Shown one piece after another: positions 4,138 to 50,054 of a DNA stretch of 64,000 nucleotides (position 1 is its first letter; each line of letters begins with the position of its first letter). Source of the DNA: Kiritimatiellia bacterium (GTDB taxonomy: Bacteria > Verrucomicrobiota > Kiritimatiellia > SLOV01). The notes below the pieces were generated by a model. The model searched no databases and was not told the DNA's origin. It worked only from the letters and a program-made list of their open reading frames with translations. The stretch lies in assembly GCA_963578625.1 (NCBI GenBank), contig CAUZEO010000001.1, forward strand, positions 14,188 through 78,187. Direction: 5' to 3'. Position numbers and translations under genes: made by a program.

Positions 4138-5092
4138 TACGAAGTGGCCCCAGGTCTCCGAAACTTCCCGGAGGCTTCCCTCTGAATTCGGGGCTCCGGC
4201 AGCGCAATTCCCTCGCCCTTTCGAAGTAGTCCGTCTTCAATTCTATCCCATACTCCTTCGCCAGGTCCTCCGCGCTACGATCCGCGAGGTACGACGTGAT
4301 CAACACATTTTCCTCTTTGTCCATTTTCACGATCGTCACACCCCCTCCGAGGTCACCCTCCATTGCTGCGATCTGCTCCTCGTTCCAATTGGCGTGGGCG
4401 ACAACGAAATCCAAGCCGATTTCGGCAGTCACGATCGGTCGGTCTTTACTACTCTCCGTCAACCAGCGCCCCAGCGGATCGACTACAAATCCTCCCTGGT
4501 ACCCACCTTCGCCGGTCACCTGCGCGGAGGCGATGTAGTATTGATTCTGGATCGCGCGAACGATGTTGTGCGCACCGGCATGGTAAAAGGAGGGGAAGAG
4601 AACGAGCTTGGCATGATGCTCCCCCAGGCCGTTCATGATCTCATCGAAATTCATATCGAAGCAAGTGGCGGCGCCGATGCGCCCCCAGGGGGTGTCGAAC
4701 ACCTTCACCTCCTCCCCCGGTACCACGCCGGCCGCTAACTCGCCGGTTGTCGGAAACATCTTGTCGTACACCCCGATGAGATCGCCCTTGTCATCGATCA
4801 GGAACATGGAGTTCCGATAACCGACCTCATCTTTCGAAAACGTCCCCCCGGCAACCCATGTACCGTGCTGGTTTGCGATCGCTCCCAGCCGATCCGTCAA
4901 CGGACCGGGCAGAGAATCCGCAACCGGCAGCGCCTCCTCGATCGGTATCCCGAAATACGGGAAGAGCTCCGGCAAAAGCACCAGGTCCGGGGATTCCGCG
5001 AGCGCAACCTCGAGATGCTGTACCGCAACATCGACGTTCTCCTCAATCGAGCGAACATCGCTGTACTTCAGACTGACGGTGGAAATCTTCAT
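4130..5092 (-). CDS. Carbon-nitrogen hydrolase (nitrilase superfamily) protein
   Basis: LVLLPELF (catalytic Glu region) and GAATCFDMNFDE (catalytic Cys) are typical of the CN-hydrolase family. Confidence 0.7.
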   Translation of the reverse strand: MKISTVSLKYSDVRSIEENVDVAVQHLEVALAESPDLVLLPELFPYFGIPIEEALPVADSLPGPLTDRLGAIANQHGTWVAGGTFSKDEVGYRNSMFLIDDKGDLIGVYDKMFPTTGELAAGVVPGEEVKVFDTPWGRIGAATCFDMNFDEIMNGLGEHHAKLVLFPSFYHAGAHNIVRAIQNQYYIASAQVTGEGGYQGGFVVDPLGRWLTESSKDRPIVTAEIGLDFVVAHANWNEEQIAAMEGDLGGGVTIVKMDKEENVLITSYLADRSAEDLAKEYGIELKTDYFERARELRCRSPEFRGKPPGSFGDLGPLRNG

Positions 5093-5892
5093 CCGGCAGC
5101 CGTGGTCTCGATTTCCTTCAATTGCCGTTGCCCGACAAGTTTGACTTCCGCATCCGCGGTTTTTTCGAAAGAGACGCGATTGTCGACATGCGCCTTGGAA
5201 TTATTCACCGAGACATTGCTCATCGTCGTGTAGCAACTGATAAACGACCAGCGCGCCTGCGCGCTCTTGTTGGCATCGGAGCGGTGCAGCATATTCCCGT
5301 GAAAAAACAGGGCGGTACCCGGATCCATCTCACAATATACTAGTTCAAGATGCTTCAACGCGTCCTCCACCCGCTTCAAATCGGCGCCGGCCTGAGTTCC
5401 GGCTTTTCCGTGCTCGACGCGGCCCATCCGGTGAGACCCGCGGATGACCTGCAGGCAACCATTCTCTTTCGTCGCCCGGTTGACCGCGATCATGCAGCTC
5501 GCCGTATCGGGAAACAGCAGACCGTCGTAATCGTCCTGGTACCAGTAGCCGTAGTCCTGGTGCCATTCCCACGCGCCGCCCACATGCGGATCTTTCAGCA
5601 TCATCTTGTGGTGAAAGTGGTACACCTTGTCCCGCAGCACCTGCTCGAGCGGGTTGACGATCCGCTCGCACTTCGCGAATGCGCTAAACACATCGTCCCC
5701 CAGTTCCTCGGTAAGCCAGATCCGGCTGACTCCGCCCTCGGCATCGCGGTCGGCGTAGGAATCTCGGGCGACCTGCTCGCTCTTCTCGGTGATGCGCTGC
5801 AGGAGCTCGACCTCCTCGGAGTCGAAGAGTCCTTCGACGAAGAGAACGCCATCGCGGTCAAATTGTCGAATCTGTTGTTCAGTCAGTGTCAT
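5089..5892 (-). CDS. Phytanoyl-CoA dioxygenase (PhyH) family Fe(II)/2OG oxygenase
   Basis: N-terminal MTLTEQQIRQFDRDGVLFVEGLFD, then HQDYGYW and HRSDAN motifs. The ORF extends to 5940; the internal Met at 5892 matches the family N-terminus. Confidence 0.75.
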   Translation of the reverse strand: MTLTEQQIRQFDRDGVLFVEGLFDSEEVELLQRITEKSEQVARDSYADRDAEGGVSRIWLTEELGDDVFSAFAKCERIVNPLEQVLRDKVYHFHHKMMLKDPHVGGAWEWHQDYGYWYQDDYDGLLFPDTASCMIAVNRATKENGCLQVIRGSHRMGRVEHGKAGTQAGADLKRVEDALKHLELVYCEMDPGTALFFHGNMLHRSDANKSAQARWSFISCYTTMSNVSVNNSKAHVDNRVSFEKTADAEVKLVGQRQLKEIETTAAG

Positions 5893-6634
5893 CTGGTTGA
5901 GAATCCGAAAAGCTGAAATTTCGACGCAAGGAGTTCTCACTCAAGGCCGGCAGGTCTTTGGGGTAAACGGATATAAGCCGCTTCCCCTCCTGCTGGTAAA
6001 GCATCTTTTTCTTATACATGCTCATATTGTATTGCGGGGTGTCCATGCCCCAATACTCGATGTACACATCCAGTTCAGAAAGATAAAAATCCGGACGGAT
6101 CTGGAATTCCTTAATGATCCGATACTTGGTGTCATATCGGTACGCAAGGCCCTGAGCCGTCAGCCATTCGGCGATCTTACCCTCGCCCTCGGACTGCACA
6201 AGCGTTCCATCGCGAGCCTCGACGGTCTTGTTGATCTCGACCTGGGTTTCGAAGTTTCGTCGTTCCAGGAATACCTCGTCGAAACAGCGGTCGTAGAAGA
6301 CGCGTTGAAAAGCTTCGCTGGAGCGGCCATGCTCCTCGGGCGAGACTGCGGTGTTGCAGCGCTGGCAGCGGTGCTTAACGCCGGCTTCGGTATCTTGAGA
6401 AGCCAGGTCAATGGCATCTGCAGTGGTCTTCGCGGCAGCGCGGACATAGTCGCGGCTCGCGGGGTTTCGCGCGAGGTCGCGGAGATCGTTGACCTGGGCT
6501 TGCGCCTCAGCGCCAAATTTTTTCAGCGCGCGGATCGCGTATTGCTGCGTCTGCGCATGCGGCCCTTTCAGCGCAATCGGCGCCAGCGCCGCTTGGTGCT
6601 CTTTGGGTAGCATCGGGCTTTTCATGGCGTCCAT
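5879..6634 (-). CDS. Hypothetical protein with C-terminal restriction-endonuclease-like (DUF559/Vsr-like) motif
   Basis: ORF continues to 6802, which would overlap the upstream gene, so the Met at 6634 is preferred. The C-terminus reads GKIAEWLTAQGLAYRYD...IRPDFYLSELDVYIEYWG, resembling PD-(D/E)xK / DUF559 cores. The N-terminus is HEAT-like helical. No database check was possible. Confidence 0.45.
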   Translation of the reverse strand: MDAMKSPMLPKEHQAALAPIALKGPHAQTQQYAIRALKKFGAEAQAQVNDLRDLARNPASRDYVRAAAKTTADAIDLASQDTEAGVKHRCQRCNTAVSPEEHGRSSEAFQRVFYDRCFDEVFLERRNFETQVEINKTVEARDGTLVQSEGEGKIAEWLTAQGLAYRYDTKYRIIKEFQIRPDFYLSELDVYIEYWGMDTPQYNMSMYKKKMLYQQEGKRLISVYPKDLPALSENSLRRNFSFSDSQPDDTD

Positions 6635-6794: not shown

Positions 6795-9002
6795 TCAAGC
6801 AAACTTCAAGAATGAATCTTCACACGTCAGCTCGTAAATCCGAACATCCGTCGCCGGCAACGCGGCAAGCAACTTGCCGTCCTCGATGCAGGTTTCCCCA
6901 CTGGAAAGCCATTCGTGGCAGGACTCGATTTGCGTGCCCTTCACCTCGACCGTACCGTCCCACGGCGCTTCGGCATTGTTGATCAGCGTGACCAGGAGCT
7001 TGTAGGGATCATCCGTTACATTCACGATCGACTGGATCGGCCGCCCCTTGATCTTGATGAGCGTATAGGATTCCAGCACGGATCCCACGATCTCCTGCAC
7101 CACCTTCAGGAAATTCACTGGGGGGAACGGCCGGCCCCGGATAAAGTCGTTCCGGTAGCTCATGTCCCAGGGCAGGTCCTCCCGCTTGTGCCAGACGTAG
7201 TCGGGCCGCTCGCCGTTGGCCCAGAACACCGGCGTCACAACAAACACATGGCCGTCACCCACCTTGTTCAAGCACACGAGCGGATGTCCCGCGTCGTTCG
7301 TTGCCAACACTTCCGCGCCGTCAGTCTCCACCAGGTCGTAAACGTATTCGGCCTCACGATAGGTTTTGCCGGTGACGAGGCTTTTTGCCGTGGCGTCCTT
7401 CAGGTCCTTGTCCTTCACCGTCACGCCCGCGAGGTCCGCGATGCCGCCGGTCATCTGCCGAGTACACAGGACGACCGAGCGGCCGGAGCGCACGAATGCT
7501 TCCAGGTTCGCCGCGAAACCCGCGTCGTCGGGCATCTGTCCCAACAGCACCACGGCCTGGTACTTCTTCAATGCGTCCTCCGACGCATTGTGCAGGAGCA
7601 CGTCGAAAGAATCGCCGAACGGGGTGGGGGTCAGGCAGCCGCGCTGATTTGGCGCATAGGCGTACTCGCCATACCCGGGATAAACCCAGTGGAAAAACTG
7701 GTCGATCTGGAAGTCACCCATATTGTAGGGGATGTTGCCCCATACCCGTTCCGGTTCACTCTGCCCCAGGCCCTTGTGAATGGGCGGGCACCAGCCGTGA
7801 TGGAAATCCAGAACCAGGGCCACTGGTGAGTACTGCACGCCTCGATTCGGACGCGCGCGCGTGATCCAGACCCACTTGCGGAATTCCCGGCCGAACGGGG
7901 TAAGGTTGTGCTCGAGATCGGAACCCCGGTGCAGGTTTCTCCGCTGCACGTCCGACGCCACGTCGCACACCGATGCGTTCTCCCGCTCCACCGGCAAATC
8001 GGGCCGGACGCCTTCCGCCTCGATTCCGGAGAAGTCCTTGGGCAGACCGCACATGTCGTCGTAGAAGAGTCCGCCCTCCGTGCCGCACAGACTGAATCCA
8101 TACATGTACGCAGCAAACCAGAGCCGCTTGGCCAGGTGGGTGGAAATTCCGCCGTCGGGGTAGCCGTATTGAAATTCGATTTTGATGCCCCGGCCTTCTT
8201 TCGGGTAGCACTTGGTACCATAGAAATCAGGCTTCTGCTCGATGCTCGGGATGAACATCGAGATGTGCCCATGTGTGAGCAGGTCGTACTGGCGGGAAGC
8301 GCCCCGCAGAAACGCGCATCGCATGATGCTGCTCTGCAGGCCGGTGCCGAGCTCCAGCCCAATCATGCGATGATTCAGTTCCGCATAATAGTGCGAAAAT
8401 CCCAGGCTCCCGATGGTGACCACGTAATGGTGAAACATCACGTCCAGGGTATCGCGGGAAAATCGAACAAAATCCTCGTAGGCTTCCTTCCGGCTGCGTT
8501 CCGGAGATTGTTTGGGCCAATTAAAGGAGCCGAAGACATATTGGCCAAGGTACTCCCCATCCTGCTCCCCGTTCTCCCACCCGAGAAACCGCGGGCCGAA
8601 GGTTTCCATCAGGAATTCCTGCACATCATCGGGCACCACCATTTCGCCGGAGCCCAGGTTGAAAGGAATGCCGTGGCGGATGCCCCAGATGCTGTTGATG
8701 ATCAGCCCTTTCTCGGCATACTTTTTCGCAATCTCGCGCCACCCCGGCTCCTCGCCGTCCTGCGGCCGGTTCACCCACATCCAGGCGGTGAATGGCCGGA
8801 TGGCGGTGGCAAAGTCATAGTCGAACATCGCGTTGTAGATCAGGTAATCGTTCCACCCCATCTGCACGCTCTCCTGGAAGTCTTTGGGAAGATCCCGCCT
8901 GGCCACCGGCTTCGGCTCGACCTGGTTGTACCGGGGGCTGTCCTCCGGCGTGATGGGCTTGTTGGGGATCGGGTGCAGGGTCAGTTCGGGCAACGTGGAC
9001 AT
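6795..9002 (-). CDS. Uncharacterised large protein, paralog family A, copy A1 (no signal peptide)
   Basis: 735-aa ORF collinear with 25429..27687 and 36320..38524. Shared blocks: DPKPVARRDLPKDFQESVQMGW, IWGIRHG, FGPRF.GWENGEQD, ERSRKEAYEDFVRFS, QYDLLTH, FVRSGR.VVLCTRQ. The layout looks like an N-terminal catalytic domain, an alpha/beta 'AVVLLG.MPDD' domain and a C-terminal beta-sandwich. Confidence 0.85.
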   Translation of the reverse strand: MSTLPELTLHPIPNKPITPEDSPRYNQVEPKPVARRDLPKDFQESVQMGWNDYLIYNAMFDYDFATAIRPFTAWMWVNRPQDGEEPGWREIAKKYAEKGLIINSIWGIRHGIPFNLGSGEMVVPDDVQEFLMETFGPRFLGWENGEQDGEYLGQYVFGSFNWPKQSPERSRKEAYEDFVRFSRDTLDVMFHHYVVTIGSLGFSHYYAELNHRMIGLELGTGLQSSIMRCAFLRGASRQYDLLTHGHISMFIPSIEQKPDFYGTKCYPKEGRGIKIEFQYGYPDGGISTHLAKRLWFAAYMYGFSLCGTEGGLFYDDMCGLPKDFSGIEAEGVRPDLPVERENASVCDVASDVQRRNLHRGSDLEHNLTPFGREFRKWVWITRARPNRGVQYSPVALVLDFHHGWCPPIHKGLGQSEPERVWGNIPYNMGDFQIDQFFHWVYPGYGEYAYAPNQRGCLTPTPFGDSFDVLLHNASEDALKKYQAVVLLGQMPDDAGFAANLEAFVRSGRSVVLCTRQMTGGIADLAGVTVKDKDLKDATAKSLVTGKTYREAEYVYDLVETDGAEVLATNDAGHPLVCLNKVGDGHVFVVTPVFWANGERPDYVWHKREDLPWDMSYRNDFIRGRPFPPVNFLKVVQEIVGSVLESYTLIKIKGRPIQSIVNVTDDPYKLLVTLINNAEAPWDGTVEVKGTQIESCHEWLSSGETCIEDGKLLAALPATDVRIYELTCEDSFLKFA

Positions 9003-9124
9003 GGCTCTCTCCTGTAGGCGAATTTTAAACTCCGGAAAATCTGCCCTAGCCTTGGAAGGATGTCGAGAATTTCACTCACGCCCTATAGATTACTTCGCCT
9101 TGGCCATGCGGAGAACAAATTGTC

Positions 9125-9844
9125 TCATTCGGGATATTCCGGGTCATGGCCTGTGATGACAGGAGCGTTCAGTCGGCGGATGCGTGCCAATCCCTGGAAA
9201 CAGGCCTGCAGGTCGCAGTTGTAACCCGGCGGCACGTCGTCGCGTAGATTCCGCGGGGTAAGCGCCACGTCACTGGTGAGAACCAACGGACCGGCGTCGG
9301 TCTGCACCATGACCGCCTGGGAACCCATGGTGTGACCGCCCAGCAGCAGCACGTTGATGCCGGGCAGGACTTCGGCATCGCCATCGAGGACGACCAGCCG
9401 GTCGGCACACCCTTTCAGGTGGGAATGCACGACGTCCACAAATGCGTGGGCCGCGAACCAGGGGTGGGGCGGATCAACGATCACATCCAACTCCCTGCGT
9501 TGGATGTACAGCCGCGCCTGGTCAAATGCCTTCACCACGGGCGAGCAGTGATCCCAATGCAGATGAGTGAAGATGATGTCGGTCACCTGGGAAGGCTCAA
9601 CCTGGGCTTGTTTGAGAAGGTTCAGCGGGCGGGTGGCTTCGGTCTGCCCCATATCGGGATTGAATGCCGCACCGTCGGCCTGGTCACAGCCGACGTCCAC
9701 CAGCACCGTTCGCTGGTTGTTCCGGATCAGCGTAAAGCGGTATTTCAAAGTGATGCTGCGCATCGGATCACCCAAAAAGTAGACGCGTGCTTCCGGTTCG
9801 ATGCTGCGTCCGAAAACCAGCGACTTGATCCGGTATGTGCTCAC
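9125..9844 (-). CDS. MBL-fold metallo-hydrolase
   Basis: HLHWDHCS metal-binding motif and a metallo-beta-lactamase-fold layout. The ORF runs to 10024, but that would overlap the upstream SDR; GTG at 9844 or a nearby start is more likely. Confidence 0.7.
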   Translation of the reverse strand: MSTYRIKSLVFGRSIEPEARVYFLGDPMRSITLKYRFTLIRNNQRTVLVDVGCDQADGAAFNPDMGQTEATRPLNLLKQAQVEPSQVTDIIFTHLHWDHCSPVVKAFDQARLYIQRRELDVIVDPPHPWFAAHAFVDVVHSHLKGCADRLVVLDGDAEVLPGINVLLLGGHTMGSQAVMVQTDAGPLVLTSDVALTPRNLRDDVPPGYNCDLQACFQGLARIRRLNAPVITGHDPEYPE

Positions 9845-9854
9845 CTCCGCAGCC

Positions 9855-10613
9855 TCACAGCATATACCCGCCATCCACAGGCACCAAAACGCCGGTGGTC
9901 CAGTCCGCGCCGCCGCCCGCCAGGTGAACCACGATGGCTGCAATATCTTCGGGCCGGCCCAATCGCCCCGCGGGCGTAGAGCGGATGATGCCGTCCCGGA
10001 CGCCGGGGCCGGCCAACTGCTCACGGTTGATCTCTGTTTCCACCGTGCCGGGAAGCACGGCGTTGACCTGAATGTTGTACGGCGCCAGGGCCACGGCCAG
10101 GGCCCGGGTCAGCATGTTCGCCGCCGCCTTGGAAGCACAATACACTACCTGTTGCGGGCTGGTCACCCCCTCGCCGGAAATGGACGTGATGTTGATGATC
10201 TTTCCGCTGCCGCGCGGCTTCATGTGCTCGGCCGCTGCCTGGGACAGCAGCAGCAGGGCGCGCGCGTGGAGATCAAAAGCAAGGTTCCATTGCTCCGGGG
10301 TCGATTCGAACACATCGGCAAGGATAGCGACACCCGCGTTGTTGACTAGAATATCCAGCGCCCCCAGCTGATCGATGGTCTGTTGGACGAGCCACGCGGC
10401 ACTCTCGACCCGGGTCAAATCGGCCTCCAGGAAAATGGCTCTGCGGTGCACCGCGCGAATTCGATCGGCGACCTGCTCTCCACGCTCACGGTCCTGGAAA
10501 CCGTGCACCGCGACATCCGAGCCGGCCGCGGCCAGTGCCCCGGCAATGGCCGCCCCGATGCCGCGCGAACTGCCCGTTACCAGGGCAACTTTGCCCTCGA
10601 GTTGCATGCTCAA
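9855..10613 (-). CDS. SDR family oxidoreductase
   Basis: VALVTGSSRGIGAAIA, NNAG, and YCASKAA catalytic Y-x3-K. Confidence 0.85.
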   Translation of the reverse strand: MSMQLEGKVALVTGSSRGIGAAIAGALAAAGSDVAVHGFQDRERGEQVADRIRAVHRRAIFLEADLTRVESAAWLVQQTIDQLGALDILVNNAGVAILADVFESTPEQWNLAFDLHARALLLLSQAAAEHMKPRGSGKIINITSISGEGVTSPQQVVYCASKAAANMLTRALAVALAPYNIQVNAVLPGTVETEINREQLAGPGVRDGIIRSTPAGRLGRPEDIAAIVVHLAGGGADWTTGVLVPVDGGYML

Positions 10614-12873: not shown

Positions 12874-13093
12874 GCTACCTTTTAAGGTGTGATGTGAACC
12901 GTCACGGTCGCAGTCATGGGTCGGGCAGCAGTGTCCGTCAATTCAAAAGGATCGTTTACAACCTCAGTTCAAGGTCGACACCCAATAATTATATCGTTGA
13001 GGCTCGCAGAAAGACCACTGCGCAATCCTGAGAGGTAGGAGTTCCATTAGAACCTGTCTGTATTGGCTATTCATACCGGCGGTTGGGGTCCCG

Positions 13094-13623
13094 ATGAGCT
13101 TGGCCGATTCGCCGGTGCCGGAGATCCTGGCCGTGGATTTCGGTTACTGCCATCCGAGCCCGGAAGGCCTGGAGCTGTGGTGGTGTGAAGGCACGTACAA
13201 AGTGGGCCGTGAGAGGCCCCACGCCATTCGCAACCCACCTGGACGACGGCCATGGCCATCTCCCCGAATGCACATGCCTTCGGCAATGGAGACGGACTGC
13301 TGCTCTATCCGCCGTCCCGCGGCGTCCCGGACGATCCGATTATCGCGGGACCCATCAACTCCATTCGATGGGAAAACATCCGGGAAGGCTTGGAGGACAA
13401 GGAGTATTTCTGGCTGTTGGAACGCCAATTGGAACAGGTTCGGACACCGGCCCCTCTTGACGACAACGCCAAGGAGGCAATCCGCGAAGGAGAGGCGGCA
13501 CTGGACTCTGTCAACAGGCTCGTTCGGAGCTTGATCGACTACGAGACCGATCCCGGGAAACTCTACGCAGCACGCTCACTACTGGCGCATGCCATCGAAA
13601 ATCTTTCCTTCATCTCGAATTGA
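13094..13623 (+). pseudogene. Internal-deletion remnant of a DUF4091-like protein (paralog of 56324..58204)
   Basis: 13094..13230 encodes SPVPEILAVDFGY...LELWWCEGTYKVGRER, matching the N-terminus of the 626-aa protein at 56324..58204. 13252..13623 encodes GNGDGLLLYPPSRGVPDDPIIAGPINSIRWENIREGLEDKEYFW..., matching its last ~120 aa. About 450 internal codons are missing and the frame is broken. Confidence 0.6.
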
Positions 13624-13676
13624 TATTACCACTGTCGACGCCGTTAATGGCCTTGAATCCCACAGGAGATTTTACG

Positions 13677-14190
13677 TGAAACGATTTTTGCCCACAGGTC
13701 TGCTTATCGGATTCGCCTCTTCGGTTCTCGCCGCGAACCCGCTCGACGATGACCTGCGGTCGGTCGCCGACTTTGGCGCGGCAGGAGATGGGAAGGCGGA
13801 CGATACGAAAGCGCTCCAGGCGGCCATCGATGCCATTCCGGCCGCCGGCGGCATCGTCTTTCTCCCCGTCGGCATCTACCGAACGACCGCGCCGATCCGG
13901 CTGCGGCCGCAGTTGCGGTTGATGGGGGCCACGCGAAGATCATGGGGTTCCGCACCGGGATCCGGGACCGCGGCGCGGGCATGAATGTGATCCAGGGCAA
14001 CATGATCGACACGCAGGAGAAGGAAGGAATCGGGATCGACATGCATCCGGCGGAAGGGGCCCGTCCCAGCGTGGTCTCCGCCAACGTGATCGTGGCCGTC
14101 CGCGCCGGAATCCTCCGCCGCGAAAACGACCGCAACATTTATACCGGAAACGCCATGACGGACATGGAAGCTGGAAAGGGGCACCAATGA
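13677..14190 (+). pseudogene. Fragmented pectate-lyase-superfamily (right-handed beta-helix) gene
   Basis: GTG-start signal peptide VKRFLPTGLLIGFASSVLAANP, then DFGAAGDGKADDTKALQAAID. After a frameshift near 13940 come NVIQGNMI/SANVIVA beta-helix turns. Only ~170 codons remain of an expected 400+. Confidence 0.45.
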
Positions 14191-14262
14191 AATCCGGGAC
14201 CTCTGGACCGGCAACAGCGTCGCGTTCCTCATCGGCTCCAGCCTCGTGTGTATTCCTTGAAA

Positions 14263-14515
14263 TTAAGCAAACTTCAGAAAAGCTTCCTCGCACGTCAGCT
14301 CGTAAATCCGCACGTCCGTCGCCGGCAGGGCGGCGAGGAGCTTGACTCAATCACGGATCCAATGGTCTCCTGCACCACCTTCAAAAAATTCACAGGCGGA
14401 AACGGCCGGCCCCGGATGAAGTCGTTGCGGTAGCTCATGCCCCAGGGCAAGTCGTCGCGCTTGTGCCAAACATAGTCCGGCCGCTTGTCATTCGCCCAGA
14501 ATACCGGCGTGACGT
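14263..14515 (-). pseudogene. Remnant of a family-A gene
   Basis: 14263..14350 aligns to the 3' end of A1 (…CEDSFLKFA* region). 14351..14515 aligns to A1 7081..7250. About 220 nt between them, and everything upstream of them, is missing. Confidence 0.55.
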
Positions 14516-14666: not shown

Positions 14667-15347
14667 TCAGTATAGAAGCTCGTCCATGTTATCCGCAGTG
14701 TAGACTTGGTAGATGGCGTCGAATTCTTCGTACAGGTTCGCAAATTCTATGTCCGGATCATCAGGCGCATCCTGGCGTGTAAAAATGGCCATCTCTATTA
14801 CGCCTTGGCGCAGCAGCGCCGTAGGTCTGAACATCGGATCAAAGAATCGGGGAATAATAATCGGGGGGACAGACTCCGGTATGGAATTCAGTATCGCGAG
14901 ATCGGCCATGGGCGCACCCACGAGGGAAACGATTGCAGCAACATCCGGATTCGCTTCTCCAATCCTGATGTAATCGTCGACGGTCATTCTGCTCTCAGCC
15001 ACCATAGGCACGCCACGCTCTTGTGTGTCCCCCTGAAGCGTCTCCGACGCCACAATGTGTATGCCGGATTCCTTCAATGCCATTTCGAATACTTTGTCAT
15101 GCTGCACGAACGTATCCTCGACGGTTTTCTTGTCATGTATAAGCAGAACGACGCGCGCGCCTTGACCAAGATATTCGCCCGTCTTTTCTGCAGCGATGCG
15201 CCCGAACTCCACAAACCTGTCGTCGAACACCTTGGCGCTCTGTTGCGACCCCGATTTCAGGATCGAAATCAGACTGATGATGATGATCAGGATTGCGATG
15301 ACGACGACAATCGGGGCCTTCTCTGTACTCATCTTAGACCATGGCAT
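14667..15347 (-). CDS. Hypothetical membrane-anchored protein
   Basis: 226 aa with an N-terminal TM helix (IVVVIAILIIIISLISIL) and a short alpha/beta domain. Lower GC than its neighbours. Confidence 0.45.
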   Translation of the reverse strand: MPWSKMSTEKAPIVVVIAILIIIISLISILKSGSQQSAKVFDDRFVEFGRIAAEKTGEYLGQGARVVLLIHDKKTVEDTFVQHDKVFEMALKESGIHIVASETLQGDTQERGVPMVAESRMTVDDYIRIGEANPDVAAIVSLVGAPMADLAILNSIPESVPPIIIPRFFDPMFRPTALLRQGVIEMAIFTRQDAPDDPDIEFANLYEEFDAIYQVYTADNMDELLY

Positions 15348-15494
15348 TTTGATTCATCTCCATTTTGCTGTGTAGCCGCACCGTCCAAGTAACGCATAGC
15401 AGGGCCTCCAGGCGATAAGCAAGCACGTTCCACGCACCGTCAAGCTCATGGGGGCACGGTCTTTCCCTTTGCTGGTCGACCAGCTTATCCTCGG

Positions 15495-16049
15495 TTGGGT
15501 TATGGGCCGCGGCTTGTGACTGCTTGGACTCTTATGGCAGTGGCGATCGGATGGGCGCCGTTCGCGTACGGCGCAGGGAGCAATACGGTCGGGCGTATCT
15601 GCAGCACGACCAATGTTTCGCCCGGCTATACGCTGTTTTCCACCTTGCGGTACACCAACACCTATCTCGTCGACATGGAGGGAGATATTGTCCACTTGTG
15701 GCGCTCCGGTTTTCCCGCGGGCAACACGCATTACCTCCGCGAGAACGGCAACCTGGTGCGGGCCGCCGATCCGGGAAGCACCCATTTTGTCATCTGCGGC
15801 GATGCCGGCGCGGTGCAGGAGTTCGCCTGGGAGGGGAATTTGCTGTGGGAATTCCACTACAACGACGAGAACGTTCGCGCCCACCATGACATCGCGCTGC
15901 TGCCCAACAGCAACATCCTGATGATTGCCTGGGAACGGAAATCGAACGCAACAAGCCATCGGCACCCTGACTCATTTTACCGACACGGATCCCGTACGTG
16001 CCAACCAGAGCCCACCCTTCTACCAGGTCGTCGCGAGGCCGTGACCTGA
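15495..16049 (+). pseudogene. Truncated arylsulfotransferase (ASST)-like paralog
   Basis: The first ~155 aa (signal peptide, NTVGRICSTTNVSPGYTLF, HHDIALLPNSNIL) align with the intact downstream gene. After ERKSNA the sequence jumps to the 3' terminus of that gene (…THFTDTDP…) in another frame. This is an internal-deletion remnant. Confidence 0.6.
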
Positions 16050-17899: not shown

Positions 17900-18793
17900 T
17901 TACCGTCGGCGACGAATCGCGAGGAGCAATCCGCCAAGGCCTAACAGGGCCAGGGTCCCGGGTTCGGGAATACTCATGTAAGTCTGAACCTCGCTCTGAG
18001 TCAGGAGACCGTCGAAGACCCTCAGTTCATCAATTTTGCCGAGGAATCCGCGGCCGGCGCCGGTGTGGGCATCGTGTCCACCGACTACGAAGTTTCCGCC
18101 CCAGTCTTGATCTATCCCTCCAAATCCCTGGGTGTCCTCCAGTACACCATTCACGTAGAGATGTTTTTCGTCCGAATCACTGTCCCACGTGGCTGCAACG
18201 TGAACCCATTCCTCCACGGCAAGTAGTCCGGATCCGCGGGCGGAGGCGACGTCACCGGCGGCTCTCAATTCAACACGCATGCCCGTATAGTTATGCTGAT
18301 TGTGCACGACGTAATTGAACGGATCGTTCCCCTTGACGACAATCCAGTTGGCATTATCCGGGTTGTTGAGGGCGTTATCGTTACCGTATCCAGTACCGTC
18401 ACCGTCGGTACCCCCGTCTTGCCTCATCCAGAACATGATTGATCCGCGGTTAGCCAACGCAAACGACGCATCATCTCCGAAGTACACGACGTCGCCAGTC
18501 GGACCTATAGGCATCCGGTCTCTCCGGGTCCCATGCACGGGAGGATCGTCGGCGATGCCGTCACCTCGTACGCCGTGGAACTGGAGGCCGCCCCCGCTAT
18601 GTCCTGTGGTCCAGTCCGAGTCGCTCTTCATGAACGAGAACTCCCCATGCTGAGGATTGGTGGCCACCTGGTCGAAGACGTTCGTTCCCGAGCCTTCGTT
18701 GAAGTTGTAATAGTGAGTCATGGTCACGCCACCCGCCTGGGCTATTCCTGCCGCGGCGAGAAACATAACGGTTACCGTTAGCATTTTCTTCAT
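17900..18793 (-). CDS. LamG-like (concanavalin A-like) secreted protein with PEP-CTERM anchor
   Basis: Signal peptide, LamG-like core shared with two upstream paralogs, and C-terminal IPEPGTLALLGLGGLLLAIRRRR (PEP motif, TM helix, Arg cluster). Confidence 0.85.
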   Translation of the reverse strand: MKKMLTVTVMFLAAAGIAQAGGVTMTHYYNFNEGSGTNVFDQVATNPQHGEFSFMKSDSDWTTGHSGGGLQFHGVRGDGIADDPPVHGTRRDRMPIGPTGDVVYFGDDASFALANRGSIMFWMRQDGGTDGDGTGYGNDNALNNPDNANWIVVKGNDPFNYVVHNQHNYTGMRVELRAAGDVASARGSGLLAVEEWVHVAATWDSDSDEKHLYVNGVLEDTQGFGGIDQDWGGNFVVGGHDAHTGAGRGFLGKIDELRVFDGLLTQSEVQTYMSIPEPGTLALLGLGGLLLAIRRRR

Positions 18794-19600: not shown

Positions 19601-20686
19601 CTACTCCTCCAGAATCTGATACTGCGCCGTGTTGTCGAACCCGTTCGGATCGTAGAGACGCTGGGTCCCGCCATCGCCGACGATGCTGGCCCCGGCATCC
19701 AGGAACACGACGCTGGTGCTGTTGGAAACTTGCAGCACGTAATCTCTGCCGACCTCGCTATCGAACTGTAAAAACGTCGTGGGGCCCACCGTGACGGTTT
19801 CGAACCCGGGCCCCGGCAGGGGGATCGAGGCCATTTCAGCCTGCACGGCGGCATTATCCAGAAGCTCGTCGAAGATCTTCAGTTCATCAATCGCGCCGAG
19901 AAATCCGCGGCCGGTGCCTGTGTGGCTGTCATGCCCGCCGAGCACAAAGGGTCCCCCCTGGTCGTTCAATCCGCTCCAGGAATCGGCACTGTTGCCCACT
20001 AAGTCACCGTCGACCCACAGCCGTACCGAATTCGATGCCGAATTCCAGCCGACCACAAAATGCACCCATGTTCCTACAGGCAGCGGAGAAGGCGCTGCTA
20101 TGTTCGGGCCACCATTCAATTCGATGCGACCGTGGTATGCTGCATTCGGCTGATTGTGAAGGAGATACGAGAACGGATCCGAACCATGAACTACGAGCCA
20201 GTTGGAGTTATCCGGGTTGTTGATGGCTCCGGCTTCACCGTATGCACTACCGTCACCGTCGGGACCCGGGTCCTGCCGCATCCAGAACATGATGGTGCCG
20301 GTGCTGGTCAACGCGAAGGATGCATCGCTACCGAACCGGACCACGTCGTTCTTCGGACCCTGAGGCTCCCGGTCAAGCCGGGTCGGATGAACCTGTGGGT
20401 CATCGAGGATGCCGTCGCCCCGCACGCCGTTGAACTGCAGGGCGGTTCCGCCCCCGATCAGCGGCGAGTCCACCCAGTCGTTGGTCGGGTTCTTCCCTGC
20501 GCCGAACGTGCCGTGCTGCGGATTAGTGATCACCTGGTCGAACACGTTCGTTCCGGCCCCTTCGTCGAAGTTGTAGTAGTGAATCATGGCCGCCTGAGAG
20601 CCGGCCGCGCACAGGAAGCACGCCGCAGCCGCGGCGGCAATCACTGTGGCTGTCCATCTGTTCGTTTTCATCTGAATTTTCTTCAT
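19601..20686 (-). CDS. LamG-like secreted protein (paralog 2, no PEP-CTERM)
   Basis: Signal peptide and LamG core homologous to 17900..18793 (HYYNFDEG.GTNVFDQV.TNPQHG, GVRGDGI.DDP.VH.TR.DR), plus an extra C-terminal beta-sandwich. Confidence 0.8.
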   Translation of the reverse strand: MKKIQMKTNRWTATVIAAAAAACFLCAAGSQAAMIHYYNFDEGAGTNVFDQVITNPQHGTFGAGKNPTNDWVDSPLIGGGTALQFNGVRGDGILDDPQVHPTRLDREPQGPKNDVVRFGSDASFALTSTGTIMFWMRQDPGPDGDGSAYGEAGAINNPDNSNWLVVHGSDPFSYLLHNQPNAAYHGRIELNGGPNIAAPSPLPVGTWVHFVVGWNSASNSVRLWVDGDLVGNSADSWSGLNDQGGPFVLGGHDSHTGTGRGFLGAIDELKIFDELLDNAAVQAEMASIPLPGPGFETVTVGPTTFLQFDSEVGRDYVLQVSNSTSVVFLDAGASIVGDGGTQRLYDPNGFDNTAQYQILEE

Positions 20687-20708: not shown

Positions 20709-21893
20709 TCAGTCCAAAATTTCGAATTGGTAGCTGCCGTTGGGGTCCCCGTCGGGGTCGTAGAAGTTGACGGGATCGCCTGTCCCCTTCACAAGAGGTC
20801 CTACTGGGATAAAGTTCCCCGCCACCAGGTCGGTGGCTCGCTTCAGCTGGTAGTTTTTGTTGGCCTTGGTGCTCAGGCTCATGATGACGGCACCGGTCAC
20901 CGGATCGGGGACCCAGGGAATCGTCCCCTCGGGCGCGGCCGGCACGATCGCCATTTCGGCCTGAACTTCCTGCGCGGTCAGGGCGGTATCGAAGATCTTG
21001 AGTTCATCAACGCCGCCAAGGCAACCACGTCCCGAACCCGTCTGGCCCGGCTGCCCGCCGACATACAAAGAGCCGGTCGCAGTGAGTAGACCGTTGAAAC
21101 CGTCGTTTACGGCGACTTCCACGCCGTCGACGTAGAGGAAGGATTCCCCGTCGCCGTAATACCCGCCGGTTTTCGTCCAGGTCGTGGCGATGTGGACCCA
21201 TTCCCCAGTCGGCAGCGGACTCGGTGACCTCAAATCGATCTCACCCATTTTTCCCTCGAACCGAAGACCCAGTCCTTGCGAAGGCTGATGGTGGAAAACG
21301 TATGGATCTATGCCGACGGGTCCCTTGTAAATAATCCAGTTCGCATTGTCCGGGTTGTTGATGGCGCCGTCGCCACCGTACGGGCTGCTGCCGTCGCCGT
21401 CGGGACCCGGATCCTGGCGGTACCACATCATGATTGTTCCCTCGTTCGTAAGATCGAAGGAGGCGTCCGGCCCGAATTGCACGTAAGCATTCTGCGGGCC
21501 CAGCGGCACCCGGTCACGCCGGGTTATATGAACGGGTGGGCTGTCTTTGATGCCGTCGCCCCGCACGCCAGGGAACTGAAGCGCGTTCCCCCCGTTCACC
21601 AGAGGGGAGGAGATCCAGGCGCTGGCTGGATCCAGTTGGGCTCCGAATGTCCCGTCCTGAGAATTGGTCTTTACCTCGTCCTTGGTCTGAGTACCGCCCC
21701 CCTCGTCGAACCGGTAGTAATGAACCAATGCTGCCGGACCGCTGACCGCGGCCACCAGCATCCACAGCCCCGCAACCGGAACCATGTAGCGCGTTGCTTT
21801 ACTTCTCATCCTGGTCTCCTTTCGCTGGATAAAACGACCGGATGAACAATCCGTACATCCGGCGATTGAATGCGACTTCGTCGGCCTCTCCAT
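20709..21893 (-). CDS. LamG-like secreted protein (paralog 3)
   Basis: Signal peptide, the same LamG core, and a C-terminal beta-sandwich extension. Confidence 0.8.
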   Translation of the reverse strand: MERPTKSHSIAGCTDCSSGRFIQRKETRMRSKATRYMVPVAGLWMLVAAVSGPAALVHYYRFDEGGGTQTKDEVKTNSQDGTFGAQLDPASAWISSPLVNGGNALQFPGVRGDGIKDSPPVHITRRDRVPLGPQNAYVQFGPDASFDLTNEGTIMMWYRQDPGPDGDGSSPYGGDGAINNPDNANWIIYKGPVGIDPYVFHHQPSQGLGLRFEGKMGEIDLRSPSPLPTGEWVHIATTWTKTGGYYGDGESFLYVDGVEVAVNDGFNGLLTATGSLYVGGQPGQTGSGRGCLGGVDELKIFDTALTAQEVQAEMAIVPAAPEGTIPWVPDPVTGAVIMSLSTKANKNYQLKRATDLVAGNFIPVGPLVKGTGDPVNFYDPDGDPNGSYQFEILD

Positions 21894-22121
21894 GGGCCAG
21901 AGGGCCCGACCTCGCGCAATCTAGGAAAGATACCTCCCCCGCAAACGGGCTGGCAACAAAAAAATCATTGAATATCGGCATAACTACGTTTAGCATTCCA
22001 TTGCTTAACGGAGCGGTGATCCGACCCGAAAATCGGGTCGCTTCCGTCGATGATACATCACGGATGCGTGACTACGGCAGGAGATCCGGAAATGCGTTTT
22101 TGCAAGAAAGTAAAGCAAAAC

Positions 22122-22949
22122 ATGGAAAGTTCCTCACGTAACTCAGCCCGAAGGTTCATTGAGTCGCTGGCTTGCCGGCCGAAGTCTTCTGTGCCCGCGA
22201 CTGCGTCGGTGGGGTGGAGGCAAGCCCGGTCAGGATTCACGCTCATCGAACTGTTGGTGGTCATCGCTATCATCGCGGTGTTGTCGGCGATTCTGCTCCC
22301 GGCCCTCCGGGAAGCGCGACTGCGTGCCTATACCGCATCCTGCCTGCCGAATATTCGAGGCGGGCACCTGGTCCAGACCCAGTACGCGCTCGATAACGGA
22401 GGCGAATATGCGGAGGCGCCTGAGCATTTGCCGGATTACTACCGGGAGGGAGGCCCATACCAGGGGAGCCGCCGGCAGAAGTTCGAGGATTATGTTTCGA
22501 ATTACAAGATCCTCTCCTGCCCCTATCACAACTATACGATGCGGAGATTTCGGGCCGATCGGCATTGGCGCCGGGAGTGGGCCACCAGCGGCCCCGCCGA
22601 CACCTACAATTTCTGCCACATGAACTACATGTGGATGGGCAACTACGTGAAGGGAATCTCTGCCTACTATAACGGGGAGCTCCCGTGGCCGAAGTCCATG
22701 GATGAAAGCACTCCGGACCGCGTGCTGGTCACCCACCGGATCAACCTCATCAAGGGATACGGAGCCCAATTCGAAAGCCACAACAATGCATTGGAAGTGC
22801 TGGGCGTCCGGCGGATCCAGCAGCCGGAAAAGGAGCTGGCCGGTTTGAAGGAGAACCCCGTTGGATATGCCGATGGTCATGCCCTCGTCATCCCGGCCGA
22901 AGACATCGTGCGGCGCGTAAAAACTGGGTCGGGAACTCTGTTTTATTGA
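22122..22949 (+). CDS. Prepilin-type N-terminal cleavage/methylation domain (DUF1559-like) protein
   Basis: [25 protein letters not shown] pseudopilin N-terminus, C-terminal …[13 protein letters not shown]. The ORF starts at 22050; the Met at 22122 gives a shorter leader. Confidence 0.75.
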
Positions 22950-22958
22950 GGTTGTGGA

Positions 22959-23729
22959 ATGGACGACGAGGCACGAGACTATGACAGTCTTGAAATCCGA
23001 GATTCGAAATCAGCCTTCACGTTGATTGAGCTTCTGGTGGTCATCGCTATCATCGCGGTGCTGTCGGCGATTCTGCTCCCGGCCCTCAGGGAAGCGCGAC
23101 TGCGTGCCTACACCGCATCCTGCCTGCCGAATATTCGGGGCGGGCACCTGGTCCAGACCCAGTACGCGCTCGATAACGGAGGCGAATATGCAGAGGCGCC
23201 TGAGCATTTACCGGATTATTTCCGGGAGGGAGGCTCATACCAGGGGAGCCGCCGGCAGAAGTTCGAGGATTATGTTTCGAATTACAAGATCCTCTCCTGC
23301 CCCTATCACAACTATTCGATGCGAAAATTTCGGGCCGATCGGCATTGGCGCCGGGAGTGGACCACCAGCGGCCCCGCCAACACCTACAATTTCTGCCACA
23401 TGAACTACATGTGGATGGGCAACTACACGGCGGGAATCTCTGCCTACTATAACGGGGAGCTCCCGTGGCCGAAGTCCATGGATGAAAGCACTCCGGACCG
23501 CGTGCTGGTCACCCACCGGATCAACCTCATCAAGGGATACGGAGCCCAACTGCTCAGCCACAACAATGCGCTCGACGTGCTGGGCATCCGGCGTCTCCAG
23601 CAGCCGGAAATGGAACTGGGCGGGTTGAAAGAAAACCCGGTCGGATATGCTGATGGCCACGCACTGGTCATTCAGGCCGAAGACATCGTACGGCGTGTGA
23701 ACAGCGGCAGGGGAGTCCTGTTTTACTGA
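22959..23729 (+). CDS. Prepilin-type N-terminal (DUF1559-like) protein, tandem paralog
   Basis: [25 protein letters not shown]. More than 90% nucleotide identity to the upstream gene across ~700 nt. Confidence 0.75.
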   Translation: MDDEARDYDSLEIRDSKSAFTLIELLVVIAIIAVLSAILLPALREARLRAYTASCLPNIRGGHLVQTQYALDNGGEYAEAPEHLPDYFREGGSYQGSRRQKFEDYVSNYKILSCPYHNYSMRKFRADRHWRREWTTSGPANTYNFCHMNYMWMGNYTAGISAYYNGELPWPKSMDESTPDRVLVTHRINLIKGYGAQLLSHNNALDVLGIRRLQQPEMELGGLKENPVGYADGHALVIQAEDIVRRVNSGRGVLFY

Positions 23730-38524: not shown

Positions 38525-38646
38525 GGATCTCTCCTGTAGGCGAATTTTAAACTCCGAAAAATCTGCCCTAACCTTGGAAGGATGTCAAGAATTTCACTCA
38601 CGCCCTATAGATTACTTCGCCTTGTCCATGCGGAGAACAAATTGTC

Positions 38647-38940
38647 TCATTCGGGATATTCCGGGTCATGGCCCGTAATGACAGGAGCGTTCAGTCGGCG
38701 GATGCGTTCCAATCCCTGGAAACAGGCCTGCAGGTCGCGTAACCCGGCGGACCGGCGTCGGTCTGCACCATGACGGCCTGGGAACCCATGGTGTGACCGC
38801 CCAGCAGCATCACGTTGATGCCGGGCAGGACTTCGGCATCGCCATCGAGGACGACCAGCCGGTCGGCATACCCTTTCAGGTGGGAATGCACAACGTCCAC
38901 AAAAGCGTGGGACGCGAACCAGGGATGGGGCGGATGTATC
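38647..38940 (-). pseudogene. Truncated MBL-fold hydrolase (degraded copy of 9125..9844)
   Basis: Encodes …LERIRRLNAPVITGHDPEYPE* and HPWFASHAFVDVVHSHLKG…, the C-terminal third of the MBL gene. It has a ~57-nt internal deletion and ends abruptly at 38940 against a hairpin element. Confidence 0.6.
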
Positions 38941-39165
38941 GCACTGCGGACTGAAGTCCGCAACCACAGACGCGGGCTAAAGCAGTTTAAGGTAGCCCAT
39001 GGCCGCGAGACAGAACACAGGATTGGCCACAAAGAGGCACAAAAAATACCCGAGAGAAAATCACTTTGTGCCTTTTTGTGGCCATGAATTTTGCTTAACC
39101 TGCGCTAAAGCCCACGCTACCTGGAGGCGTAGCGCGGAATTCATTCCGCAGTCGTTAAGGCAGTC
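38941..39165. mobile_element. MITE-like element (~225 bp) with palindromic terminal inverted repeats
   Basis: Left end actgcggactgaagtccgc; right end gcggaattcattccgcagt (16/19 as inverted repeat). The interior carries further hairpins (ggccacaaagaggcacaaa…tttgtgcctttttgtggcc; gcgctac…gtagcgc). It encodes no protein. Confidence 0.5.
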
Positions 39166-49879: not shown

Positions 49880-50054
49880 CCCTACTTGAAAGTTCAGTAA
49901 TAAATCGAGATGGTTATGACATTTCTGCGAATCAAGTCCATCAAACTACGCACTTTTTCTTTCACGCCGGCCTTTACGAAAGGATTTGCATTCCCGGTCC
50001 CCGGGTGGCATAGTCCCATGTCCTATCCCTATCCACGAGGAGGATCCGGAGCAC

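Follow-up and report, generated by a model that had tools for sequence, protein, structure and literature searches.

The stretch of DNA analysed here, 64,000 nucleotides of a contig assigned to an uncultured Kiritimatiellia bacterium (Verrucomicrobiota) and referred to below as the window, carries three intact genes of one protein family (family A; genes A1, A2 and A3) and the relic of a fourth copy (A4), in a glycan context that includes GH151-like, GH123 and DUF6259 genes. The features on which our analysis draws are as follows:

6795..9002, minus strand: A1, intact family-A gene, 735 aa
9003..9474, minus strand: A1 leader and 3' part of an intact Lactamase_B gene (9125..9874); the repeat copy upstream of A1
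14266..14513, minus strand: A4, family-A relic of 248 nt, found by tblastn and nucleotide alignment
25429..27687, plus strand: A2, intact family-A gene, 752 aa
27706..30948, plus strand: gene for a DUF6259 protein of 1080 aa, directly downstream of A2
36320..38524, minus strand: A3, intact family-A gene, 734 aa
38525..38972, minus strand: A3 leader and Lactamase_B pseudogene relic; a direct repeat with 9003..9474
40221..42236, minus strand: gene for a GH151-like (Pfam GHL6) putative alpha-L-fucosidase, upstream of A3, with a GH42M-type middle domain in common with family A

All four family-A positions agree with those of a preliminary description of this DNA, with the remnant now refined to 248 nt. 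The copies had also been described as collinear over their full length, and indeed homology is not limited to short stretches, as A1, A2 and A3 are paralogs that align end to end, each pair in a single full-length BLASTP alignment with an E-value of 0. Protein identities by BLASTP are 75.1% (A1-A3), 66.8% (A1-A2) and 65.5% (A2-A3), and the corresponding nucleotide identities are 76.1%, 69.9% and 70.5%; the range of 60-70% given at first fits both pairs with A2 and is slightly low for A1-A3. The dN/dS comparison that had been proposed gave omega values of 0.15-0.21 for each pair and each domain, with saturated synonymous divergence (dS 1.06-1.42 among the pairs). The duplications behind A1 to A3 are therefore old (dS of at least 1), and purifying selection acts on each of the three copies. 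Because the intact copies are this old, the suggestion of ongoing duplication finds no support. Divergence among the three is moderately higher in the loops of the presumed catalytic face (30-43%) than in the barrel core (23-32%), and their translations, read directly, contain no signal peptide. Searching the whole window with the three proteins by tblastn gave exactly one additional site, the relic, while the family HMM detected no other complete member there, its middle domain being shared only with the GH151-like neighbour.

Duplication and decay as such are borne out by the relic with its intact syntenic counterpart, a Lactamase_B relic, the upstream repeats and a contig with the junction expected of a deletion between them. 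In tblastn, the A4 relic matches A1 residues 589-645 (88%) and 710-735 (92%), and its two pieces correspond to A1 nucleotides 1765-1934 (14343..14513, 84.7%) and 2127-2206 (14266..14345, 82.5%). The first 1764 nt are missing, a further 192 nt have been deleted internally, and the two pieces are in different frames. An intact family-A gene on a related MAG contig (L005) is the positional counterpart of this relic, and the fourth copy was lost through a deletion of about 1.8 kb at the relic site. We considered the L005 gene as the ortholog of A1 and dropped this assignment, as synteny places it at the relic site; with respect to A1 it may be either an ortholog that moved or a paralog.

Upstream of A3, amino acids 271-299 and 171-246 of Lactamase_B are still recognizable at 38650..38736 and 38748..38972, showing that a unit of Lactamase_B plus family A underwent segmental duplication. 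Apart from an indel block, the segments upstream of A1 and A3 (about 410-470 nt) share about 96% identity, compared to 76% for the coding sequences. In a contig from another sample (L001), the upstream flank of A3 is joined to A1, with the crossover point inside 38525..38972, and this junction is the product expected from a 29.5-kb deletion, spanning about 9.5 to 38.7 kb, between the two upstream repeats, which presumably recombined. A3 is also 97% identical to its ortholog on the MAG contig L006, while the flanking genes are only about 83% identical, suggesting that the A3 allele was recently exchanged between lineages. Scans of the window for tRNAs and Rfam families were empty, and thus neither an integration hallmark nor a riboswitch is at hand to explain the relics and the conserved leader. 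Turnover of family A at this locus continues, and the locus offers a clean natural case of gene birth and death, with a syntenic deletion relic, a putative 29.5-kb deletion variant mediated by the repeats, and an apparent gene-sized exchange tract at A3.

Each copy has its own gene context. A1 lies within a co-directional run of oxidoreductases and hydrolases (cyclase, Zn-ADH, PCC, SDR, Lactamase_B, A1, a 251-aa protein, PhyH, CN_hydrolase, SDR, and AKR). A2 is followed after 19 nt by the DUF6259 gene, and the two are also paired on L007, a contig of the related MAG. The window encodes four or more DUF6259 paralogs, and the DUF6259 gene also recurs beside close relatives of family A. A3 is located downstream of the GH151-like gene and a 327-aa gene, and homologs of the GH151-like protein adjoin family A elsewhere too, among other places in Latescibacterota loci. 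These distinct contexts, together with local multi-copy family-A arrays in 13 of 71 distant loci, fit subfunctionalisation, and it is plausible that A1 to A3 have diversified in substrate specificity, as had been proposed.

Paralog expansion is routine in glycan-degradation islands, and we see the value of the locus in the family itself and not in the expansion of its genes. Judged by sequence searches, family A is a large family without a name in Pfam, NCBIfam, or the PDB. It comprises about 1,850 clusters at 50% identity, spread over Verrucomicrobiota, Planctomycetota, Latescibacterota, Armatimonadota, Clostridia, Paenibacillus, Bacteroides, and bins labelled archaeal, and members from many phyla are about 25% identical. 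The N-terminal ~390 residues had no match in Pfam-A 2025 for A1 to A3, or in NCBIfam 20.0 for nine members including distant ones. A phmmer search of A1 against the PDB returned nothing, and the family profile matched PDB entries (7bob and GH164) in the middle domain only. The source names we saw were "hypothetical protein" throughout, apart from one tail-domain label, and a literature search for a characterised member and a plasmid tBLASTn gave nothing useful. Genes for ABC sugar permeases occur in 18 of the 71 distant loci, and among the immediate neighbours of family A, GH78, GH63-like, GH20, sialidase-like, and solute-binding proteins are overrepresented. The homolog in Bacteroides neonati has a signal peptide, and the SusC/D locus to which it belongs also encodes a hybrid two-component regulator and a GH2 protein. 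When 74 family-A loci were searched with a middle-domain HMM, the matches were GHL6/GH151-like proteins only, with no GH42 genes among them. Many members are fused to a C-terminal xylose-isomerase-like (AP_endonuc_2-type) domain, namely 59 of the best 150 family representatives (~40%) and the family-A protein in 30 or more of the 71 distant loci. One such fusion is a 997-aa protein of Paenibacillus agaridevorans. Ten of the 71 loci contain Gfo/Idh/MocA genes, and in L079 and L082 such genes, along with stand-alone AP_endonuc_2 genes, lie beside close relatives of the family. These fusions and neighbours would fit non-hydrolytic chemistry, which goes against reading the proteins as glycosidases.

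We examined an AlphaFold2 model of family A (pLDDT 86.6, pTM 0.91). The predicted domains are an N-terminal (beta/alpha)8 barrel, a GH42M-type domain (388-600), and a beta-sandwich (630-735), a plan which in this model is that of GH42, archaeal-type GH35, GH164, and GH151 enzymes. Consistent with this, the top Foldseek matches of the whole model were the GH35 enzyme IaSGT, GH42, and GH164 (E 5e-17 to 1e-14, TM ~0.5), and the Pfam GH42M profile (PF08532) scored 27.6 bits in A3 (cut-off 25.8), 23.4 in A1, and 14.1 in A2. A separate AlphaFold2 model of the barrel alone, compared by Foldseek to decide between clans, gave only weak matches to mixed TIM barrels (TM 0.3-0.38), including GH99, ketose 3-epimerases, the pyruvate carboxylase CT domain, GH29, and GH164, and as modelled the barrel has no close solved relative. 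Sequence and profile methods also linked the barrel to no glycosidase family, an observation that speaks against a glycosidase reading. Among 144 full-length members, eight residues stand out by their conservation: E146 (97%), D148 (97%), H204 (93%), E217 (94%), R233 (100%), E309 (89%), W421 (99%), and Y481 (100%). All eight, including the core acidic, histidine, and arginine residues, are retained in A1 to A3. The clade of members at >=60% identity departs from the family consensus at other positions, namely R47Q, W69R, D104S, N246H, and E453Q/G. The preliminary description had proposed mapping the acidic residues onto a predicted structure, and DSSP of two independent AlphaFold2 models assigns them within eight beta-alpha units, with D/E143, E146, and D148 following beta4, E217 closing beta6, and E309 following beta8. 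Strand beta7 (243-247) is followed by S248, which is 92% conserved, and there is no conserved acid at this position; all of these strand assignments are predicted topology only.

[quoted passage not shown] However, the GH42 catalytic domain (Glyco_hydro_42, PF02449) did not match A1 to A3 at E <= 1, and when the barrel profile of family A was compared by hhalign to four GH42 barrels of known structure, the probability was 0.2%; these four sequences were taken from PDB alignments, for which a B. subtilis GanA-like sequence served as bait only. Family A also lacks the NE acid/base motif and a conserved acid after beta7, and as the models place no such acid there, the beta4/beta7 scheme of clan GH-A appears to fail. 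E146 and E309 were tried as a clan GH-A pair, their spacing of 163 residues resembling the 157-158 of GH42, and this candidate was dropped given the null hhalign result and the position of E309 after beta8 in both models. The highest TM-scores for the full model (0.48-0.51, at 8-10% identity) belong to GH164 Bs164 (PDB 6T5O) and the GH35 beta-1,2-glucosyltransferase IaSGT (PDB 7VL3), and the GH164 middle domain matches the family-A profile (E 0.008). Bs164 is a trimeric three-domain beta-mannosidase that belongs to clan GH-A, its E160 lying on beta4 and its E297 on beta7 (PMC7105311), an arrangement that the models of family A do not share.

GH151 alpha-L-fucosidases (ALfuk2, PDB 6TVK; Pfam GHL6) likewise combine a (beta/alpha)8 barrel, a Rossmann-like GH42M-type middle domain, and a beta-sandwich. 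Their catalytic residues are D154 on beta4, E235 on beta6, and a histidine from the middle domain of the neighbouring subunit (PMC10154630), and the candidate carboxylates of family A, which in the models follow beta4 and close beta6, may be compared to D154 and E235. Aligning the family-A profile to GH151/6TVK with hhalign gave a probability of 93% (E 2.8e-7) over residues 366-516 only, that is, the end of the barrel and domain B, and the middle domains of the two families are therefore homologous. The barrels themselves gave no hhalign match; in a greedy extension the strands came to lie 2-6 residues or less from D154 and E235, with negligible confidence. The GHL6 (PF14871) and GH29-type (PF01120) catalytic domains had no match in A1 to A3. 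Family A further differs from GH151 in its beta4 motif (G-x-[DE]-N-G-E-Q-D-G as opposed to G-I-F-L-D) and in a conserved middle-domain insertion of ~60 residues that is absent from GH151.

Taken together, we lean towards the view that A1 to A3 are old functional paralogs acting as cytoplasmic exo-acting glycosidases of an undescribed family. They would act on oligosaccharides that the ABC systems of this glycan-degradation island import, trimming them with catalytic carboxylates from the acidic cluster after beta4 (D/E143, E146, D148) and E217 at the end of beta6. This layout would be that of GH29 and GH151 and not the beta4/beta7 layout of clan GH-A, and the conserved insertion in domain B probably completes the pocket. 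In this view the chemistry, which residues catalyse it, the substrate, and the oligomeric state are all inferred. If family A does consist of glycosidases, it would define a new GH family whose catalytic layout is unusual, and it would help to decode loci in which nearly all genes are unknowns (DUF6259, GH151-like, PhyH). The frequent fusion to an isomerase- or lyase-like domain is a concrete, testable functional link.

This fusion is also central to an alternative that we regard as possible though unlikely, namely that family A is a non-Koshland sugar converter, metal-dependent or of the elimination/hydration type. It would take part in oxidation-elimination (3-keto-glycoside) cleavage with a xylose-isomerase-like lyase and a Gfo/Idh/MocA oxidoreductase, these partners being encoded separately from the unfused A1 to A3. 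Besides the fusions and the Gfo/Idh/MocA genes in distant loci and beside close relatives, the window itself contains a Gfo/Idh/MocA gene (49986..51059), D-tagatose and D-psicose 3-epimerases are among the barrel-only fold matches (E 2e-4 to 1e-3), and the E146/D148/H204/E217 set resembles a metal site. The oxidation-elimination pathway involves "sugar phosphate isomerase" lyases and Gfo/Idh/MocA enzymes, and variant operon architectures have been predicted (bioRxiv 10.1101/2024.03.25.586180). However, within family A the xylose-isomerase-like domain is restricted to other members, where it is a separate domain fused at the C-terminus; A1 to A3 do not carry it, and we found no separate gene of this kind in the window. 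The fold likeness of the family-A barrel to xylose-isomerase-like TIM barrels (AP_endonuc_2, including ketose 3-epimerases and 3-keto-glycoside lyases) is weak (E >= 2e-4, query-normalised TM 0.31-0.36), and Pfam AP_endonuc_2 (PF01261) does not match it. Epimerases carry an E, D, H, E pattern on beta4 to beta7, which differs from the conserved residues on beta4, beta5, beta6, and beta8 of family A. Taken as a whole, the protein has the architecture of GH42-type glycosidases, and fusion would be equally expected where a hydrolase passes its product to an isomerase. A broader form of this idea, which we consider doubtful, would make family A a new glycan-cleaving class with a barrel unrelated to known glycosidase clans, a missing component of non-Koshland oxidation-elimination breakdown alongside the fused lyase domain and Gfo/Idh/MocA enzymes, widespread from gut Clostridia to Verrucomicrobiota and locally amplified into arrays.

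It is much less probable that the proteins are non-catalytic, retaining a glycosidase-like shape for sugar-binding, scaffolding, or regulatory roles. Such a role would agree with a barrel lacking detectable sequence similarity to any enzyme family and with the absence of a canonical NE...E motif pair, but the carboxylates, histidine, and arginine at the strand ends are near-invariant across highly divergent members from many phyla. Purifying selection on all domains, the repeated placement in catabolic loci, and the fusion to an enzyme domain also argue for catalysis. Finally, the window matches metagenome contigs, and L001 joins the A3 flank to A1, as might be seen if strain variants had been collapsed or chimerically joined during assembly. 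We find an artefact of this kind extremely improbable as the source of the multi-copy state, as the proteins of the copies are 25-35% different, their dS is saturated, and each has distinct flanks. An independent MAG has separate contigs with orthologs of A2 and A3 and matching flanks, as well as an intact copy at the relic site, and the same arrangement is present in contigs from several samples.

Three intact family-A genes and the remnant of a fourth copy, as proposed in the preliminary description, were both borne out, as the coordinates of the three open reading frames are exact and a tblastn search of the whole window with the A1-A3 proteins gave a single additional match, the relic listed here.

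6795..9002, minus strand: A1, long ORF
14266..14513, minus strand: relic of a fourth family-A copy
25429..27687, plus strand: A2, long ORF
36320..38524, minus strand: A3, long ORF

In BLASTP, every pair aligned in a single alignment spanning the full length, with protein and nucleotide identities of 75.1% and 76.1% for A1-A3, 66.8% and 69.9% for A1-A2, and 65.5% and 70.5% for A2-A3. The relic is the counterpart of A1 nucleotides 1765-1934 and 2127-2206; the stretch equivalent to the first 1764 nt is missing, a further 192 nt are deleted internally, and its two pieces differ in frame. A family HMM run over the window found no full member beyond A1-A3.

Such an expansion is ordinary for glycan-degrading bacteria. 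What is noteworthy is family A itself, a large and broadly distributed family that entirely lacks annotation; no solved structure is close to its presumed catalytic barrel, and its conserved residues are out of keeping with the clan to which its architectural look-alikes belong. In Pfam, A1-A3 match nothing but the GH42 “trimerisation” domain, weakly and around residues 494-590 (27.6 bits for A3 against a cut-off of 25.8, 23.4 for A1, and 14.1 for A2), and the N-terminal ~470 residues have no match. NCBIfam gave no match for A1-A3 or six distant members, and no sequence relative of A1 was found in the PDB. Against solved structures, the family profile matched through its middle domain alone (GH5 7bob, GH164 6t5o, archaeal GH35, and GH42). 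A word-indexed search of 5.8 billion proteins recovered 33 family-A clusters, while an exhaustive profile search of 1.84 billion representatives yielded 1,848 at E <= 1e-3, of which 612 reached E <= 1e-30; all source names seen were “hypothetical protein”, with the exception of a single tail-domain label. In a genome scan, hosts included Verrucomicrobiota, Kiritimatiellia, Planctomycetota, Latescibacterota, Armatimonadota, Clostridia, Paenibacillus, Spirochaetes, Bacteroides and some bins labelled archaeal, the nearest genome being the uncultured Verrucomicrobiota MAG CAZTAB01. The clade of at least 60% identity that holds A1-A3 is small (~10 clusters at 90% identity), and its next relatives are at ~38%. 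No signal peptide was found in the translated sequences of A1-A3, which are therefore presumably cytoplasmic. Some members of 1,360-1,740 aa (P0202-P0208) carry Laminin_G_3 or autotransporter-associated beta-strand domains, so secreted or surface-bound versions exist beside the cytoplasmic ones.

An AlphaFold2 model built from a 30-sequence alignment was confident (pLDDT 86.6, pTM 0.91) and comprised eight beta-alpha units ending near residue 385, followed by an alpha/beta domain (388-600) and a beta-sandwich (630-735). The whole model matched GH35 IaSGT (7vl3), GH42 (3tts, 5e9a, 4oif) and GH164 (6t5o) in a Foldseek search of the PDB (E 5e-17 to 1e-14, TM ~0.5, identity 8-14%), all of which are three-domain glycosidases. 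Modelled by itself (pLDDT 83.2), the barrel gave only weak matches to mixed TIM-barrels at TM 0.3-0.38, including GH99 MANEA (2e-5), ketose 3-epimerases, the pyruvate carboxylase CT domain, GH29 and GH164. With four bona fide GH42 barrels from the PDB, hhalign showed no relationship. A GH151/GHL6 alignment that included 6TVK did match (Prob 93%, E 2.8e-7), but only within A1 residues 366-516, which cover the last barrel helix and domain B, the middle domain; relative to GH151/GHL6, family A has an insertion of ~60 residues in domain B. The likeness to GH35, GH42 and GH164 lies in architecture and the middle domain, not in the barrel, and we rate family A as a GH42/GH151-type three-domain enzyme.

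Conservation was counted over 144 full-length members, in A1 numbering. Position 143 is acidic in 84%, and E146 (97%), D148 (97%), H204 (93%), Y205 (84%), E217 (94%), R233 and G234 (both 100%), Q238 (94%), S248 (92%), K264 (85%), E309 (89%), Y481 (100%) and N675 (98%) are conserved, as are W404, W421 (99%), D430, Y444, E453, D464 and D467 within the domain-B insertion. By DSSP strand order in both predicted models, E146 and D148 follow beta4, H204 follows beta5, E217 lies at the end of beta6, S248 follows beta7, and E309 follows beta8. GH42 and GH164 follow the clan GH-A scheme, which uses beta4 plus beta7 (PMC7105311). No conserved acid was found after beta7 among the 144 members with either model, so on the predicted topology this scheme does not fit family A. 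A beta4/beta6 pair is instead the layout of GH29 and GH151; in ALfuk2 the pair is D154 on beta4 and E235 on beta6, and the site is completed by His503 from the middle domain of the adjacent subunit (PMC10154630). Family A is thus best read, we infer, as a putative glycosidase with the beta4/beta6 layout of GH29 and GH151, in which the conserved domain-B insertion may contribute to the pocket. A1, A2 and A3 each retain the core conserved residues of the family. Their clade departs from the consensus at usually conserved positions (R47Q, W69R, D104S, N246H, E453Q/G), which would fit a clade-specific substrate.

The surroundings of A1-A3 and of their distant relatives support a carbohydrate-active role, naming no substrate. 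Across 71 distant loci, the commonest companions were ABC sugar permeases (18) and GHL6 proteins (5), and the Pfam families best represented in 100 immediate neighbours were GH78 rhamnosidase (6), solute-binding protein (4) and GH63-like (4), followed by GH20, AP_endonuc_2 and sialidase-like BNR (3 each). In Bacteroides neonati the homolog carries a signal peptide, and its gene is part of a SusC/D locus that also contains a hybrid two-component regulator and a GH2 gene. Of the 150 best representatives, 59 are fused at the C-terminus to a xylose-isomerase-like domain of ~250 residues, as is family A in at least 30 of the 71 distant loci; in the Paenibacillus protein, Pfam identifies this domain as AP_endonuc_2. 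Separate genes for Gfo/Idh/MocA oxidoreductases lie nearby in 10 of the 71. On two contigs, L079 and L082, Gfo/Idh/MocA and stand-alone AP_endonuc_2 genes adjoin close family-A relatives. Both domain families drive a recently described route of glycoside cleavage by oxidation and elimination, “sugar phosphate isomerases” being 3-keto-glycoside lyases (bioRxiv 10.1101/2024.03.25.586180). As the fusions and neighbours are of the same two families, family A may belong to this route instead of being a classical hydrolase, although we regard this as less likely than the glycosidase reading drawn from the beta4/beta6 pair. Membership in a non-Koshland glycan-cleaving system is more doubtful still, but it would be considerably more interesting if true. 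The cultured Paenibacillus of loci L034, L037 and L040 offer organisms for possible study of family A. These three loci share a cluster of an ABC sugar importer, Gfo/Idh/MocA, a large extracellular protein of 1,480-1,716 aa and a family-A fusion whose partner domain is xylose-isomerase-like; the large protein of L034, the one searched with Pfam, is S-layer-anchored with GH101-like domains. DUF6259 genes recur beside the close relatives on L079 and L082, and URO-D-like genes accompany family A there and in 8 distant loci.

Two to five family-A ORFs lie within 10 kb either side in 13 of the 71 distant loci, from Armatimonadota, Verrucomicrobia, Phycisphaeraceae, Latescibacterota and Clostridia; the local multi-copy state is a trait of the family. 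Synonymous divergence among A1-A3 is saturated (dS 1.06-1.42) and omega is 0.15-0.21 overall, alike across all three domains: the copies are old and constrained. Of the proposed ongoing duplication and decay, duplication and decay are well supported, but the intact copies, being old, lend no support to duplication being ongoing; diversifying specificity is plausible. A Lactamase_B relic upstream of A3 (38650..38972) corresponds to a Lactamase_B gene that is intact and lies upstream of A1, and therefore the unit duplicated was Lactamase_B plus family A. In L005, from a related MAG, orthologs of window genes 15354..15965 and 14667..15347 are followed at 1,982 nt by a family-A gene that is intact, whereas in the window the relic lies 153 nt from this flank, so ~1.8 kb was deleted. 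The relic is 84% identical to A1 and 78% to the L005 gene, and is too short to tell which is nearer. Gene relics lie side by side over 13049..14513, with further fragments beyond.

13049..13216 and 13240..13620: relic of a GH123 paralog (aa 15-70 and 499-625) that has lost a large internal part; identity to the intact GH123 (56324..58204) is 62-71%
13678..14190: frameshifted pectate-lyase/rhamnogalacturonase-like N-terminus, followed by the family-A relic
15510..16041: arylsulfotransferase-like fragments, on the opposite strand to ORF 15354..15965

Flanking orthologs differ from the related MAG at dS 0.63-1.0. A3 (36320..38524) differs from L006 4532..6735 at dS 0.097, between adjoining genes at 0.68 and 1.0, and nucleotide identity of 94-99% falls to 87% and then ~80% exactly where the gene ends; A2, compared with L007 over 25485..27641, is a mosaic, with 88-96% identity in its first 1.4 kb and 80-86% in the rest. 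The low dS with its sharp edge, together with this mosaic, suggests that family-A alleles were recently exchanged between lineages in gene-sized tracts. The segments 9003..9474 and 38525..38935, upstream of A1 and A3, share ~96% identity once an indel block is set aside, in which the A3 side is a net 61 nt shorter; for the coding sequences the figure is 76%. These direct repeats, 29.5 kb apart, comprise a 122-nt leader and a Lactamase_B 3' segment. The leader likeness may reflect gene conversion or a shared regulatory element; Rfam gave no match in this region. In contig L001, from another sample, the genes upstream of A3 are joined to A1 inside the repeat, the product expected from a 29.5-kb deletion between the repeats, although it may be an assembly chimera. 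Such a deletion would remove A3, A2 and everything between the repeats. Recombination at the repeats is thus probably still continuing.

The window is a glycan-degradation island of mostly poorly known families. It holds a GH151-like gene (E 4e-18 to 6TVK across its full length), a GH123 gene, at least four DUF6259 paralogs, an arylsulfotransferase, an ABC sugar transporter, SDR, AKR and Zn-ADH oxidoreductases, and Laminin_G_3/PEP-CTERM and prepilin-type N-methyl proteins.

49986..51059, plus strand: Gfo/Idh/MocA oxidoreductase gene, beneath a minus-strand ORF (49974..50606) without a family match
5089..5940, 42315..43055, 45140..45967 and 51316..52221: four PhyH-type Fe(II)/2-oxoglutarate dioxygenase genes
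27706..30948, 47144..49879, 52391..55612, 63151..64000 and 46060..47025: DUF6259, a second expanded family
22050..22949 and 22959..23729: tandem duplicates of prepilin-type N-methyl-motif proteins, 89% identical
17900..18793, 19601..20686 and 20709..21893: three Laminin_G_3 proteins in tandem, 44-56% identical

A short Gfo-like fragment lies at 55612..55896 (minus strand), and two of the PhyH genes are 67% identical to each other. DUF6259 has three full copies (43-51% identity), a fourth that runs past the window end, and a separate ORF matching the N-terminal ~300 residues only; its proteins give weak GH66/GHL15-like matches. The ABC transporter ORFs at 58326..60206 and 60224..63112 look unusual, the 962-aa one joining a solute-binding domain to a permease domain and the 626-aa one placing ~430 residues with a weak Glyco_hydro_42 match before a permease domain; either these fusions are real or the ORFs were called too long. 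One of the tandem Laminin_G_3 proteins has a PEP-CTERM anchor, and this trio and the N-methyl duplicates are further local expansions.
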